Origin: Clostridia bacterium
GTDB lineage: Bacteria; Bacillota; Clostridia; UBA1212; UBA1255
Assembly: GCA_017560765.1 (NCBI GenBank)
Contig: JAFZEI010000015.1
Coordinates: 397-64,396, forward strand
Direction of reading: 5' to 3'
DNA: 64,000 nucleotides
Positions within the stretch are counted from its first letter, which is position 1. Every line of letters starts with the position of its first letter. The translations under genes were made by a program, and so were the position numbers. This document shows, in pieces, positions 6,793 to 64,000 of this stretch. Under the pieces are notes generated by a model, which had not been told where the DNA came from, did no database searches, and saw nothing but the letters and a program-made list of their open reading frames with translations.

Positions 6793-6866
6793 AAAAACAC
6801 TTCCTTCTCATAAACCAAAAAACTTCATCTCCGATAAAACAGAGACGAAGTAAAAAATACTCGATT

Positions 6867-6922: not shown

Positions 6923-9130
6923 TCAGATTAATATCTTATGCACTTTTCCGTCATCTTCCAATTTTATTGTTTTGCATCCTTTTGATTTTACAGTAATGAT
7001 ATATACAGAATTTTTATATTTATATTCTATTGTATATTCCTTCCACTCATCCGGAATGTTTGCGTTCAATACTATTTCTGCTTTACCCTTAATTTCACTG
7101 TTTTTCACTGTAAATCCCAAAATATCTTCAAGAATCACCTGATACAGCCATGAGGACGAACCTGTATACCAAGTCCAACCGCCGCGACCAATATTTTCAT
7201 CGCTGTAAATATCTGCTGCAACAGCATAAGGTTCCGTTTTATAACGCGCAACTTCCAATTCTGTCCTGGTATGATTTATAGGGTTTATTACATCTACCAT
7301 ACGTCTTCCTTTTTTAGCAAAATCATCTCCCATTTTAAGAAATGCTTTTGCCAACCAAACTGCCCCATGGGTGTATTGTGCACCATTCTCACGTATTCCG
7401 GCAGGATATGACGCAATATAACCCACATCTTCAATAGAATCAGCAGAAAAAGGAGGCGTGAGCAGCTTTATTATTCCGTTGTTATAATCTGCCAAAAAGC
7501 GTTCCGCAGACAAAAGAGCAGTCTTGCACCTTTCTTTATTTCCAAAGCCGCTTAACACTGCCCATGATTGAGCTATGGAGTCTATCATACATTCTCCCGA
7601 ACGGTGGCTGCCTAAAACCCTCCCGTTATCACAAAACGCACGAATATACCAATTGCCATCCCAAGCATGTTTTTCTATGGCATCGGCAATTTTTTTTGTT
7701 TCCGTTTGCAATCTATGCCTGTCTACCTTTGCAGATTGAGACAGAAGCGACATTTTATCCAAGGCCTTTAGGCAATAACATAAGAACCAGCCGAGCCAGA
7801 CACTTTCGCCTTTACCTTGAATGCCCACGCGGTTCATTCCGTCGTTCCAATCACCGCCCATTATAAGCGGAATACCATGTTCTCCGTATCTCATTGCGTG
7901 CCTGCATGCCAACAGGCAATGGGAAAACAGACTCTCGCTTTTTTCAGATACCTCAGGTATCTCATATCTGTCAATTTCGTTAAAATCAAGAGATTTACTC
8001 TTAATATACGGTACTTTTATATCAAGAATCCCACTGTCTCCCGTAACTTCTATATAGCGAAAAGTCACGTAAACGAGCCACAGTAAATCGTCGCTGTATC
8101 TGCTGCGTATACCTGCATTTTCCGGAGGATGCCACCAATGTTGTACATCGCCTTCCTCATACTGTCTTGAGGCATGCAGTAAAATGCGCTCTTTAACTTT
8201 CTGCGGGTCTGTACATAAAAGGGCAAGGCTGTCTTGAAGTTGGTCTCTAAAACCATAAGCACCGCCGCATTGATAAAAAGCAGTTCTGCCATTTAAGCGG
8301 CAACTAACAGTTTGGTACAAAAGCCAACCGTTCATCATAACATTTATGCTCTTTTCCGGCGTAGTTATGCGAATTCGTCCTAAATATTCTGACCAATAAT
8401 CTTTTACTTTTTCAAGCGCCTCACTGCATGCTTCATATCTGGTATATTCTTGTAAAACAGTCTTATTGTCTGACAGTAGCAAAACACCTTTCCATGTATC
8501 ACCTTTAGAAACAGCCTTTCGTATATTTTCCGCCGAGGAATACATCTCGTGCCTGTATGGTGTTTCAACGGAATACTTTAGAGACAATTTCTTTTCTTTC
8601 TCCGACGTAATTTCAAAAAGCGTTATTTTAACACCTTTGTTTATTGGTACAAATGTTGTAAAACACCACTCTATTCCGTTATATTCTCCTTTAAAGGATG
8701 AATATCCATAGCCATGATGTGTTATGCAATTTGAAAAAGGAGAAATGGAATTTTCTCCTTCTTCTGTAAATTCTGTAATTTCTATACGTTCATCAGATAA
8801 ATCCTCCAGAGGATCGCAATACCAGCGAGTTATAGGATTTTCTCTGCTGTTTCCATGCCAAACGTAACCTCCGCCTTTTTCTGAAATAATAAAGCCAAAC
8901 GGTTCTCCTTCAGCAGCAGAGATGCAATTAATCCAAGGTACAGGAGGACTTTTATATATAATATATTCTCCTGACGATGTATCAAAACCACCAAATCCAT
9001 TGTTAAATTCCAAATTACCGTAATTAAAATTCCTTTTCACAAGCAGCACTCCCAATTTTTTATCATAGCCAAAAGACAAGATTTGATGCTTCAATGATTG
9101 GTGCAGCTCCGTTACTGTCTTTAGGCACAA
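6923..9130 (-). CDS. GH94 (cellobiose/cyclic-glucan phosphorylase-like) domain protein; C-terminal part of a cyclic beta-1,2-glucan synthase in a separate frame
   Basis: EFNNGFGGFDTSSGEYIIY (GH94 N-terminal signature), RYSDDLLWL and GGDWNDGMNRVG...GESVWLGWF (catalytic region). The track start at 9130 is a TTG. GTG at 9040 has GGAG 8 nt upstream and lies 23 nt after the upstream stop. Confidence 0.85.
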   Translation of the reverse strand: MCLKTVTELHQSLKHQILSFGYDKKLGVLLVKRNFNYGNLEFNNGFGGFDTSSGEYIIYKSPPVPWINCISAAEGEPFGFIISEKGGGYVWHGNSRENPITRWYCDPLEDLSDERIEITEFTEEGENSISPFSNCITHHGYGYSSFKGEYNGIEWCFTTFVPINKGVKITLFEITSEKEKKLSLKYSVETPYRHEMYSSAENIRKAVSKGDTWKGVLLLSDNKTVLQEYTRYEACSEALEKVKDYWSEYLGRIRITTPEKSINVMMNGWLLYQTVSCRLNGRTAFYQCGGAYGFRDQLQDSLALLCTDPQKVKERILLHASRQYEEGDVQHWWHPPENAGIRSRYSDDLLWLVYVTFRYIEVTGDSGILDIKVPYIKSKSLDFNEIDRYEIPEVSEKSESLFSHCLLACRHAMRYGEHGIPLIMGGDWNDGMNRVGIQGKGESVWLGWFLCYCLKALDKMSLLSQSAKVDRHRLQTETKKIADAIEKHAWDGNWYIRAFCDNGRVLGSHRSGECMIDSIAQSWAVLSGFGNKERCKTALLSAERFLADYNNGIIKLLTPPFSADSIEDVGYIASYPAGIRENGAQYTHGAVWLAKAFLKMGDDFAKKGRRMVDVINPINHTRTELEVARYKTEPYAVAADIYSDENIGRGGWTWYTGSSSWLYQVILEDILGFTVKNSEIKGKAEIVLNANIPDEWKEYTIEYKYKNSVYIITVKSKGCKTIKLEDDGKVHKILI

Positions 9131-14600: not shown

Positions 14601-15392
14601 TCAGACCTTTTTCAATCTGGAATAATCGCCCTCTCTCATTGTGCAATAAATTCTGGATGGATCAAGCTCCCAGCCGTTTCCTGTATTCCTGTTTAGCAGT
14701 TCATCAACAGTTACAAAACGATATCCTTTTTCTTTTAAAATATCCATGGCTCTGAATGCTGTTTCTATAGATGTTTCATAATTATCATGGAGTAAAACAA
14801 TATCTCCGTCAAAAGTGTTTTCAACTATTGTTTTTACCATTTTATCTATATTTCTGCATTGCCAATCACGAGTATCATAATATCCCCAGCAAACAGTTAT
14901 CATGGGTGCTGCTATATTTCTCACCCAAGGAGCAGTCAATGCGCTGCCTCCCGGTGGTCTCATATATTTAGTCTCCTGACCTGTTATTTCTTTTATAAGT
15001 TCATTTGTTTTTTTTAGCTCATAATCAACTTTTTCATGTGTTGATTTGCTGAGCCAACAATGAGAATACGAATGATTTGCAACAGTATGTCCCTCTCTTG
15101 CCATACGTGCAACAAGCTCTCTGCCTTTTGCAATCTCCCAATCCTCATATTTACCGGATTTATAATCCAATCTTTCACCTACAACAAAAAAAGTTGCTTT
15201 TGCATCTCTTTCGGCCAAACCATCCAAAAGCTTTTTTGTATATATGGGATTTGGCCCGTCATCAAACGTAAAAGCGACCATGGGCTTTATTCCCTCTCCG
15301 TTATCTGCTTTTACATAAACAGGAAAGAAAAGCGACAATACAATTACTAACCAAATTATAAAAATTGTTTCTATAAGATACACTTTGCGCAT
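14601..15392 (-). CDS. Membrane-anchored polysaccharide deacetylase (CE4/NodB domain)
   Basis: N-terminal TM segment, FTFDDGP, HSYSH and LLHD motifs. Length 263 aa. Confidence 0.9.
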   Translation of the reverse strand: MRKVYLIETIFIIWLVIVLSLFFPVYVKADNGEGIKPMVAFTFDDGPNPIYTKKLLDGLAERDAKATFFVVGERLDYKSGKYEDWEIAKGRELVARMAREGHTVANHSYSHCWLSKSTHEKVDYELKKTNELIKEITGQETKYMRPPGGSALTAPWVRNIAAPMITVCWGYYDTRDWQCRNIDKMVKTIVENTFDGDIVLLHDNYETSIETAFRAMDILKEKGYRFVTVDELLNRNTGNGWELDPSRIYCTMREGDYSRLKKV

Positions 15393-15426
15393 AAAAAAAC
15401 TCCTTCACACGATAATGTGACGGAGT
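15393..15426 (-). terminator. Terminator-like hairpin after deoC whose 3' arm contains the SD of the deacetylase gene
   Basis: Minus strand reads ACTCCGTCACA-TTATCG-TGTGAAGGAGT followed by TTTTTT, then ATG at 15392. The stem is 11 bp with 1 mismatch. Confidence 0.65.
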
Positions 15427-15474
15427 TTATTATTAGCAAAATTATTTCATTGAAACAGAAAATTAATGTAAATT

Positions 15475-54679: not shown

Positions 54680-54713
54680 AAAAAAAGCCGCACAACCTTT
54701 TAAGTTGTACGGC
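54680..54713 (-). terminator. Rho-independent terminator of rpoC
   Basis: Minus strand reads GCCGTACAAC-ttaaaag-GTTGTGCGGC followed by TTTTTTT. The only non-Watson-Crick pair is U-G on this strand, whereas it is a C-A mismatch on the plus strand. Confidence 0.85.
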
Positions 54714-62591: not shown

Positions 62592-64000
62592 ACATCACAT
62601 TCTTTATGGTGTATTATCTATGTACCTCTCGTTCGCAGTAGAAATGAGGTATATATGGCTAAAAAAATACAAACTAATCAAAAACACTTGACACAGGACG
62701 ACAGAGTTACTATCGAAAAGTGTTTGGATGCAAAAACAACGCTGTGTCATATTGCACAAGAACTCGGAAAGGACCCTACTACTATTGCTAAAGAAATCAA
62801 AAAACATCGAACATTTCAACAGCATAACACTTTCAATGACAAGCCAAACCGTTGTGCATTAGCACCATCTTGTCACAGAAAAAATCTTTGTGAGATATTT
62901 GCTCCCATATGCAAAAAAGAATGCAAATATTGCCCGCGATGTCATAAACACTGTCCAGATTTTATTCCCTATGATTACCATTGTAAACTTACAGATAAAG
63001 CACCTTATGTTTGCAATGGTTGCCAGAAGAAAGCCCAATGTCGCTTAGATAAATATTTTTATCGGGCAACAAAAGCACAAAAGGAATACAAAACCATACT
63101 TTCAGAATCCAGAACAGGCATAAATCTTTCAGAAGAAGAATTGACTCTTCTGGACGAAACTATCAGTCCTCTAGTTCTGCAAGGACAATCTGTTTACATG
63201 ATACTTCAAAATCATCCCGAAATTACTTTGTGCGAAAAAACGATTTACAACTACATCGATTCGGGAGTTTTATCTGTAGGCAATCTTGAACTTCCTAAAA
63301 AGGTAAAATACAAAGTGCGTAAATCTCACGAAACTACAATAAATGATTCAGGCATTTTCGTCGGACGTACATACAAAGATTTTCTCGCTTTTATCAAAGA
63401 AAATCACGATATACGCATTACCGAAATGGATACTGTTTTAGGATGCGAAGGTAGCAAAAAGCTTCTCTTAACATTGCATTTTGGCGAGACCAATTTTATG
63501 ATGGCGTATCTTTTAGACTCAAAAGAAGCACGTGGTATAGAAGCTGTTTTCGATAGTATTAATTCCGCCCTCGGAACGCCTCTATTCTACAAATCAATGC
63601 CTGTAATACTCACAGACAGAGGTGGGGAATTTCGCCATCCCGACACACTTGAATGCAGCGTGGATAATTTAATCAGAACAAGTGTTTTTTATTGTGATCC
63701 TATGTCTTCGTGGCAGAAACCACATTGTGAAAAGAACCACGAATATATACGCAAAATCTGTCCGCAAGGCAAAACCTCTTTCGACAGATTAACACAAGAA
63801 GATGTAAATCTTATGATGAGTCACATTAACAGTTCATGCAGAGAAAGCCTCGGAGGTTTATCTCCTTTTGCTCTTGCAAAACTAATGTTACCAAAAGAAT
63901 TATTGTCATTTTTCAATTTAACGGAAATTCCTCCTGATGACATTATTCTTACGCCAAAGCTCTTAAAGGGTAAAATCGAAGTATGAATAAAAAATCACAG
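62592..64000 (+). mobile_element. IS30-family insertion sequence (left boundary approximate; right end at or beyond the window edge)
   Basis: Contains the IS30-type transposase ORF starting about 60 nt after the hairpin. The ends are not defined because no inverted repeat pair could be found inside the window. Confidence 0.6.
62655..63986 (+). CDS. IS30-family DDE transposase with a Cys-rich insert between the HTH and catalytic regions
   Basis: N-terminal HTH (LTQDDRVTIEKCLDAKTTLCHIAQELGKDPTTIAKEIKKH). Cys-rich block (CHRKNLC...CKKECKYCPRCHKHC...CNGCQKKAQC). DDE-type core (ITEMDTV, LTDRGGEF, KNHEYIRK). RBS is GAGG. Confidence 0.85.
   Translation: MAKKIQTNQKHLTQDDRVTIEKCLDAKTTLCHIAQELGKDPTTIAKEIKKHRTFQQHNTFNDKPNRCALAPSCHRKNLCEIFAPICKKECKYCPRCHKHCPDFIPYDYHCKLTDKAPYVCNGCQKKAQCRLDKYFYRATKAQKEYKTILSESRTGINLSEEELTLLDETISPLVLQGQSVYMILQNHPEITLCEKTIYNYIDSGVLSVGNLELPKKVKYKVRKSHETTINDSGIFVGRTYKDFLAFIKENHDIRITEMDTVLGCEGSKKLLLTLHFGETNFMMAYLLDSKEARGIEAVFDSINSALGTPLFYKSMPVILTDRGGEFRHPDTLECSVDNLIRTSVFYCDPMSSWQKPHCEKNHEYIRKICPQGKTSFDRLTQEDVNLMMSHINSSCRESLGGLSPFALAKLMLPKELLSFFNLTEIPPDDIILTPKLLKGKIEV

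Follow-up and report, generated by a model that had tools for sequence, protein, structure and literature searches.

A conserved hairpin enclosing the ribosome-binding site of a polysaccharide deacetylase gene, a putative RNA gate ahead of a cyclic glucan synthase in uncultured gut Clostridia

The 64,000-nucleotide (nt) stretch analyzed here (herein the window), from the genome of a Clostridia bacterium (GenBank assembly GCA_017560765.1, contig JAFZEI010000015.1), carries a hairpin directly upstream of a polysaccharide deacetylase gene's start codon; the hairpin has the form of a Rho-independent terminator and encloses the Shine-Dalgarno (SD) sequence of that gene. All genes in the region lie on the minus strand. 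A co-directional run of polysaccharide-synthesis genes spans ~19 kb from ~34,648 down to a UDP-sugar dehydrogenase gene (16162 through 17397) and is closed by a genuine deoC (15475 through 16143; TIGR00126, 256 bits against a cutoff of 117). An 82-nt spacer separates deoC from the deacetylase gene (14601 through 15392), which encodes a NodB-type protein with an N-terminal signal or anchor (PF01522 at 1.2e-31); every match of this protein to the PgdA and PdaB models of NCBIfam fell under its cutoff. After a further 57 nt (14544 through 14600) comes cgs, which encodes a cyclic β-1,2-glucan synthase (Cgs) as two open reading frames (ORFs) in different frames (6923 through 14543, overlapping at 9063 through 9130). 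The N-terminal ORF of 1826 residues (9063 through 14543; E value of 6e-209 to PDB 8rf9/8rf0) aligns with residues ~56 through 1930 of the 2799-residue Cgs of 8rf9, and the C-terminal part is a phosphorylase-type ORF of 735 residues of the GH94 family (6923 through 9130). As an N-terminal ORF of 1811 to 1882 residues is found again in orthologs, the split appears to be natural and not a sequencing error. A first-pass annotation made from the letters alone had named both deoC and cgs, and both identities hold. The next intergenic terminator-like hairpin downstream, followed by six uridines (U6), lies after the GH94 ORF at 6818 through 6850 (~6824, minus strand) and marks the end of the deacetylase-cgs unit.

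The RNA of the minus strand reads AAUAA, ACUCCGUCACA (15426 through 15416), UUAUCG (15415 through 15410), UGUGAAGGAGU (15409 through 15399), a U tract, and AUG (15392 through 15390), exactly as the first-pass annotation had quoted it. The hairpin thus occupies 15426 through 15399. Its 5′ arm (15416 through 15426) carries in its outer half the anti-SD sequence ACUCC, and it includes a purine, G15421, that is unpaired and conserved; the 3′ arm (15399 through 15409) holds the SD sequence GAAGGAG (15406 through 15400). The loop (15410 through 15415), which is reduced to 4 nt if U15415 pairs with G15410, varies in sequence and length among relatives. A tract of seven uridines (U7; 15399 through 15393) serves at once as terminator tail and, as had been proposed, as the spacer between the SD sequence and the ATG at 15392. 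The stem, first described as a perfect 11-bp helix, in fact comprises 10 Watson-Crick pairs (six of them G-C), arranged as 5 bp, a G15421·A15404 mismatch, and another 5 bp; RNAfold adds the U15415·G15410 pair on top and three basal A-U pairs with the A-rich 5′ flank.

Folding of the 38-nt piece gave −15.3 kcal/mol against −3.9 ± 2.0 kcal/mol for shuffled sequences (z = −5.7), and none of 200 shuffles was as stable, which agrees with the intrinsic-terminator form that had been assigned to the stem and its U tract. Among the 42 genes of the window the deacetylase has the most structured initiation region (−16.2 kcal/mol; runner-up, −13.6 kcal/mol), and most of the others are weaker than −5.5 kcal/mol. 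The hairpin is no chance feature.

Relatives were gathered by using the deacetylase as a query against one genome per species, supplemented with exact-protein look-ups. They are uncultured Clostridia, labeled Candidatus Egerieisoma, Oscillospiraceae, or Clostridia, from gut and fecal assemblies of birds and mammals; with the window included, 11 species-level lineages were compared: group 1 (the window, L001, L002, and L004) and group 2 (L003, L005, L006/7, L018, L020, L025, and L027). Their deacetylases are 65 to 76% identical to that of the window and share its ATG and its N terminus (MRK...). The hairpin lies directly 5′ of this ATG in all 11 lineages, whichever of three genes comes before it: deoC (window, L002, and L004), a UDP-glucose dehydrogenase gene (ugd; L001), or, in group 2 (L003, L005 through L007, L018, L020, L025, and L027), a gene for a conserved 405-residue protein. 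The upstream gene is co-directional, with a gap of 82 to 100 nt, in every member of the clade. Because the same hairpin follows three different genes, it belongs with the deacetylase unit; judged by this synteny, it is a property of the downstream deacetylase(-cgs) unit and not of the upstream operon. The earlier view of the hairpin as the terminator of the 19-kb polysaccharide operon therefore describes its local position after deoC correctly and its allegiance incorrectly, since it accompanies the deacetylase gene across all three contexts.

A metagenome-wide scan for the hairpin motif returned 58 stretches, of which 8 are true copies (L045, L047, L069, L070, L079, and L083 through L085); all 8 precede a deacetylase ATG, and the others are unrelated palindromes or chance matches. 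A repeated or mobile element was considered and rejected: the motif is present once in the window, true copies stand only before the deacetylase, and there are neither transposase nor terminal repeats. A search of Rfam, both at the gathering threshold and at E ≤ 10, assigned the hairpin to no family (best score of 20.9 bits against a gathering score of 60).

Two side observations concern the upstream genes. L001 lacks deoC here, so the gene may have been inserted only recently between ugd and the hairpin. The 405-residue protein, found in L003, L005 through L007, L018, L020, L025, L027, and also L008 (e.g., L005:1695-2912) at 52 to 78% identity, had no match in Pfam, NCBIfam, or the PDB, and its gene has an SD sequence that is open and a canonical promoter that is strongly conserved. 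No homolog of it was found in the window; a gene of the window that encodes a 393-residue protein of unknown function was considered as a counterpart and rejected, as the two are not homologous.

The arms of the hairpin are strikingly constant. Four-fold degenerate sites of the deacetylase gene are saturated (identity to the window of 0.21 to 0.37; mean of 0.26 between groups 1 and 2), and genomic GC content ranges from 37 to 53% among the lineages; nevertheless, the arms are identical in 9 of the 11, with a single change in L018 and three in L020, two of which keep pairing. Such invariance despite saturation at synonymous sites and drift in base composition is the signature of purifying selection on the arms. 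(MAFFT misaligned the 3′ arm at an indel between the groups, so pairs were counted by hand-anchored parsing; the register of L020 was set from its RNAfold structure.) The changes in L020 fall in the outer stem, where a U-A pair becomes C-G, a compensatory replacement, and a C-G pair becomes U·G; its unpaired position remains purine-purine, with A·G replacing G·A. The single change in L018 is disruptive and lies beside the mismatch. An unpaired purine is kept in all lineages (G in 10, A in 1); group 2 has no A opposite the G, which is thus bulged. The loop, by contrast with the arms, ranges from 6 to 18 nt with unrelated sequences.

That almost no covariation is seen at saturating divergence implies that the arms are constrained as sequence, beyond structure alone. 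For the outer half of the stem this would follow from its content, since it is made of the SD sequence and the SD complement. Conservation of both arms as sequence, almost without covariation, would also be expected of an inverted repeat that acts in the DNA, either as an operator bound by a dimeric transcription factor or as an antisense promoter on the plus strand, TTCACA-N18-TATTAT. A promoter-like site of that kind (10 of 12 positions, 18-nt spacer, score of ~7) does exist in group 1 at plus-strand positions 15404 through 15433, where TTCACA is the complement of the 3′ arm and TATTAT that of AATAAT, and it points antisense into deoC; in the long-loop members of group 2 it is lost (scores of 1 to 5). 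The operator version fares no better: a fixed dimer could not bind arms set 6 to 18 nt apart, the half-sites (TCACA..TGTGA) are everted in comparison with those of the CRP/FNR type, and the changes in L020 keep pairing rather than sequence. Invariant arms at variable spacing point to an RNA helix rather than to a dimer-binding operator, and we regard a role of the repeat at the DNA level as highly improbable.

As had been claimed, the GGAG/GAAGGAG of the 3′ arm is the sole SD-like sequence before the ATG at 15392, and it is occluded in any RNA that contains both arms. In the full-length leader RNA the computed cost of opening AGGAG is 10.7 kcal/mol at 37 °C, which corresponds to an open fraction of ~3e-8; over the 11 lineages the cost is 8.5 to 13.5 kcal/mol. 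By these calculations the lock would be far too stable for useful leaky translation. Heat would hardly loosen it. An RNA thermometer, in which the internal mismatch allows the SD hairpin to melt at host temperatures of 37 to 42 °C, is suggested by the origin of the relatives in gut and fecal assemblies of birds and mammals and by the unpaired purine beside the SD-pairing segment, which is reminiscent of the bulged G of ROSE elements. Yet the opening cost declines only from 12.5 kcal/mol at 25 °C through 10.7 kcal/mol at 37 °C to 9.95 kcal/mol at 42 °C; because the SD sequence is still closed at the highest of these temperatures, the hairpin would not act as a thermometer. The stems of group 2 are longer still (−17 to −19 kcal/mol), and Rfam returned no ROSE or fourU match even at E ≤ 10. 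We give this explanation very little credence.

In addition to the stable stem, the element has the attributes of a terminator: six G-C pairs, an A-rich 5′ flank, and, in the window, a U7 tail. The G-C pairs adjoin the tail, these features are conserved across the lineages, and a U-rich tail is present in all of them at varying length (UUUUUUU, UUAUUUUU, U8, and UUAUUUUUUU). The hairpin begins 48 nt past the deoC stop codon, a distance that is sufficient for full terminator function according to a published study (PMC4824070); at this distance a terminating ribosome would not be expected to interfere. A scan for hairpins followed by U tracts on the minus strand from 34.65 to 15.4 kb found no other intergenic terminator-like hairpin; a stricter terminator scan missed this one, presumably because of its mismatch. 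From its form we infer that the hairpin terminates transcription.

An ordinary terminator that overlaps the SD sequence merely because the spacer is short would account for this form. Low constitutive expression would then come from read-through, by breathing of the hairpin or ribosome standby on the AU-rich flank, and conservation would reflect only the SD sequence and the need to pair with it, so that the outer stem is doubly constrained. The compactness of the genome fits this explanation, and the terminator-like hairpin at 6824 also lies within ~25 nt of the next start codon. Other terminators of the window (e.g., at 54688, 50395, 45707, 42296, 36249, 6824, and 1077) are nevertheless of a different build, with perfect stems, loops of 3 to 4 nt, and no SD sequence of the next gene inside them. 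With an open fraction of ~3e-8, moreover, a protein that is conserved at 65 to 76% identity would go effectively unexpressed; the conserved inner stem, the unpaired purine, the RATAAT box described below, and a further conserved block upstream would be superfluous; and the element tracks the downstream gene over three upstream contexts. A plain terminator is therefore an improbable description of the whole element.

If read-through RNA is locked, the question arises of where a translatable deacetylase mRNA could start. Immediately upstream of the hairpin lies a −10-like box, AATAAT (15429 through 15434, minus strand; RATAAT in orthologs), a candidate −10 element for a non-canonical internal promoter. 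Its ATAAT core is invariant in 10 of the 11 lineages (ATACT in L004) and so is conserved like the arms, while neighboring positions vary. Counted from the box, the unpaired purine comes at the 7th nt in group 2 and at the 8th nt in group 1. Transcription canonically starts 7 to 8 nt past a −10 box. For an RNA that starts at the unpaired purine, the computed cost of opening the SD sequence falls to 0.4 to 3.3 kcal/mol in all 11 lineages; a start set by the distal AATAAT box gives no relief of the lock. RNA beginning at G15421 is predicted to fold into the inner hairpin of 6 bp at once and to leave the SD sequence after it free. The first-pass annotation had proposed a start in the 5′ arm that frees the SD sequence, driven by TTTCAA-N17-TAATAA. 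That string is present (15455 through 15427; its TAATAA lies 2 nt downstream of the AATAAT register, 15434 through 15429, adopted here), and the proposed start agrees with the conserved box, the distance to the purine, and the low opening cost; TTTCAA, on the other hand, is not conserved and is not supported as a −35 element. Overall, a productive mRNA that starts inside the hairpin element is a possibility we hold tentatively and would place somewhat short of probable.

Promoter scans of the spacer were otherwise unrewarding. When the window and 13 orthologous spacers were scanned with a position-weight matrix, no canonical σA promoter proved strong as well as conserved in position, the best positionally conserved candidates scoring 2 to 6 on the σA matrix, and a separate promoter scan listed none on the minus strand of the deoC-deacetylase spacer. 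Comparison by eye with consensus sequences for extracytoplasmic function σ factors, σ54, σD, and the sporulation σ factors gave no consistent fit. A weak promoter-like site, TTTACA-N17-TGAAAT (15444 through 15472, minus strand; score of 3.2, without the A at −11), lies where the conserved part of the spacer (TTTnnAATAATTAGCWG in orthologs) begins on its 5′ side, and its boxes are degenerate in group 2. Clear σA promoters are found elsewhere in the window: TTGACA-N17-TATCAT at ~6895 and ~54680, TTGAAT-N17-TATAAT with an upstream TG at ~42290, and TTGACA-N17-TAAAAT before the polysaccharide operon.

The same observations bear on a different account, in which the deacetylase gene lacks its own promoter and the hairpin is an intercistronic attenuator within a co-transcribed unit. 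The hairpin would terminate most transcripts and lock the SD sequence in the remainder, until a protein, small RNA, or RNase opens or cleaves the stem with its bulged purine when deacetylase and cyclic glucan are needed. Such an account is in keeping with the lack of a canonical promoter within the conserved spacer, with the strong conserved promoter (TTGACG-N14-TGnTAGTAT) ahead of the 405-residue protein gene directly upstream in group 2, and with the co-directional upstream gene at 82 to 100 nt in each clade member; the lock would be too strong for leakiness, and invariant arms with an unpaired purine and a free loop fit sequence-specific recognition of a bulged helix. The opening factor itself is harder to place. 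No candidate regulator lies in or beside the unit in most lineages, only L022 having an upstream gene with HTH_3 and TPR domains; no conserved alternative (antiterminator) pairing is available to the 5′ arm; there is no match to an Rfam family; and why RATAAT keeps a constant distance to the unpaired purine is left unexplained. An upstream hairpin proposed by RNAalifold (P1; a 3-bp closure with an AU interior, GCA/UGC changing to GCU/AGC) was rejected as part of a structured leader: at −0.9 to −5.3 kcal/mol it is only marginally stable, and the copy in the window does not have it. Upstream ORFs beginning at an AUG atop the 5′ arm of group 2 were likewise discarded, as neither frame nor length is conserved and group 1 has none. 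We consider attenuation of this kind possible and, all told, rather unlikely.

The reading that we favor, with modest confidence and from comparative sequence evidence, is that the hairpin is a conserved cis-acting RNA gate, or insulator, for the deacetylase(-cgs) unit. In RNA arriving from any co-directional upstream gene, the stem and U7 would fold as a Rho-independent terminator and halt most transcription; in RNA that reads through, the SD sequence of the 3′ arm would be held by the ACUCC anti-SD and the message would be translationally silent. Because the same 29-nt structure would both terminate transcription and lock the SD sequence, the unit would be shielded from foreign transcription at two levels. 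Its own transcription would come from a non-canonical promoter, probably dependent on an activator or an alternative σ factor, that uses the RATAAT box; initiation at or beside the unpaired purine G15421 would yield RNA that lacks the anti-SD, begins with the inner hairpin of 6 bp, and leaves the SD sequence free. In its most ambitious form, which we advance as speculation and think rather less probable than its parts, the 29-nt hairpin would be a portable cassette that combines terminator, translational lock, and an embedded promoter firing from the unpaired purine. Were this so, the choice of start would turn the hairpin sequence into a 5′-terminal stabilizer hairpin followed by a free SD sequence, and the design would account for the constancy of both arms, of the bulge, and of the −10-like box next to a loop and an upstream gene that vary.

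Several observations weigh against the gate. Covariation is limited to one lineage, L020, and the invariant inner stem, UCACAU/AUGUGA, is left unexplained by the model. Loops of 4 to 6 nt in the window and group 1 compare well with the 3 to 8 nt of a typical terminator; the 10 to 18 nt of group 2 are long for an efficient one. The internal promoter candidate has neither a −35 element nor an extended −10 and, for want of the former, scores only 2 to 3.4 on the matrix, against 9.4 to 12.8 for the four clear promoters of the window; ATAAT-like words are common in AT-rich spacers. In group 2, where the 405-residue protein gene has a strong conserved promoter, co-transcription through the hairpin is the simpler explanation. 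Finally, L008, L017, L022, and L028 have differently built hairpins, in which a start 7 nt after a RATAAT-type box falls 3′ of the 5′ arm: L008 has a canonical terminator with the box within the 5′ arm and loop, the hairpins of L017 and L028 close over the SD sequence and the AUG without a U tract, and L022 forms a long-range helix. These designs count in favor of the internal start, on a reading that is post hoc.

The leader of cgs (14544 through 14600, minus strand) is also conserved and contains a second RATAAT box, which stands 20 to 24 nt before the start codon in every in-clade ortholog, with a TTGnAT word 18 to 19 nt further upstream. The presence of a similar box here also counts in favor of the internal start proposed for the deacetylase. 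Like the deacetylase spacer, the cgs leader is without a canonical promoter. In L025 and L027 a queT gene on the opposite strand (L025:3323-3832 and L027:2986-3495) lies between the deacetylase gene and cgs; since it splits the two, a separate promoter for cgs is probable. That the SD sequence of cgs is robustly locked, as a 48-nt fold suggested, was rejected: anti-SD pairing in this leader is weak and inconsistent, with an ensemble opening cost in fuller context of 0 to 7.8 kcal/mol (0.0 in the window).

Downstream, on the minus strand between 6792 and 6900, the canonical promoter TTGACA-N17-TATCAT is followed ~10 nt on by the terminator-like hairpin with its U6, and the SD sequence and GTG start codon (6792) of an acyl-ACP thioesterase gene come after that hairpin. 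As the promoter precedes it and the SD sequence and GTG follow, the terminator of the cgs unit lies within the 5′ leader of the thioesterase gene. At the far end of the polysaccharide operon, a small ORF of ~123 residues (MRIHESGENYLEAIF...; ~34850 through 35230, plus strand) is located between mecA and the promoter of the operon. The list of ORFs of at least 150 residues did not include it; by eye it resembles a metal-dependent repressor of the MntR/DtxR type.

Comparison with known systems places the hairpin in none of the classes of IS200/IS10 structures, riboswitches, thermometers, or operators. The closest parallels come from insertion sequence (IS) elements. According to the summary in PMC3196728, the left end of IS200 in Salmonella has two stem-loops: one terminates impinging transcripts, and the other hides the site at which ribosomes bind the mRNA of the gene that IS200 itself carries. 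Both protective functions would be shared by the deacetylase hairpin as proposed here; IS200, however, is mobile and uses two separate structures, whereas here a single hairpin would serve a chromosomal deacetylase-cgs pair. IS10/Tn10 sequesters its translation signals in transcripts from external promoters (Davis, Simons, and Kleckner, 1985, as cited in PMC13181058). Under the favored model the likeness would be close, with a 5′ arm that sequesters the ribosome-binding site lying upstream of the native start so that only read-through RNA is locked; the differences are that the IS10 start is mapped, while the start here is deduced from a conserved −10-like box, and that the IS10 structure is not itself a terminator. 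Within the library of papers that was searched, no direct precedent outside IS elements was found. Within the window, the gene at 62655 for a 443-residue HTH_38 protein (62610 through 62657, plus strand) has the second most structured initiation region (−13.6 kcal/mol), in which ACCUC, lying upstream, pairs with the SD sequence GAGGU; should the protein be a transposase, this could be a lock of the IS type on its ribosome-binding site.

Terminator formation and burial of the SD sequence are also the two standard read-outs of riboswitch and attenuator platforms in Bacillota (PMC11625349), and a terminator hairpin with a U tract right before the coding region and an SD sequence in a helix recalls them; here, in contrast, there is no aptamer, conserved alternative pairing, or Rfam match, and the conserved leader is only ~85 nt long, its conserved part being the hairpin itself. 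The Rho-independent terminators of the genome share with the deacetylase hairpin a G-C stem of ~10 bp, a tail of U6 to U7, a similar energy, and a position after a co-directional gene, and differ from it in that only the deacetylase hairpin has a conserved mismatch or bulge, contains an SD sequence, and abuts an ATG. In Bacillus, the 5′-terminal stabilizer stem-loops of the aprE leader and ermC are reported to protect mRNAs from 5′ decay. Should transcription start at G15421, the deacetylase mRNA would resemble these, with 1 nt separating its 5′ end from a 6-bp hairpin and the SD sequence directly after that hairpin. What would be new is the merging of both protective functions in one hairpin on an ordinary chromosomal gene pair, possibly with a nested promoter.

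If the element is merely a plain terminator, the finding is an ordinary one. If the gate works as proposed, it would be a natural, minimal part of ~45 bp that uncouples a module from its neighbors in both transcription and translation, which IS elements achieve with separate structures and synthetic biologists by assembling several parts. The deacetylase and cyclic β-1,2-glucan synthase of these uncultured gut Clostridia would then be under tight and separate control. In Proteobacteria, cyclic glucans serve in osmoprotection and in interaction with the host, and the hairpin element offers a concrete handle for asking when these bacteria make them.

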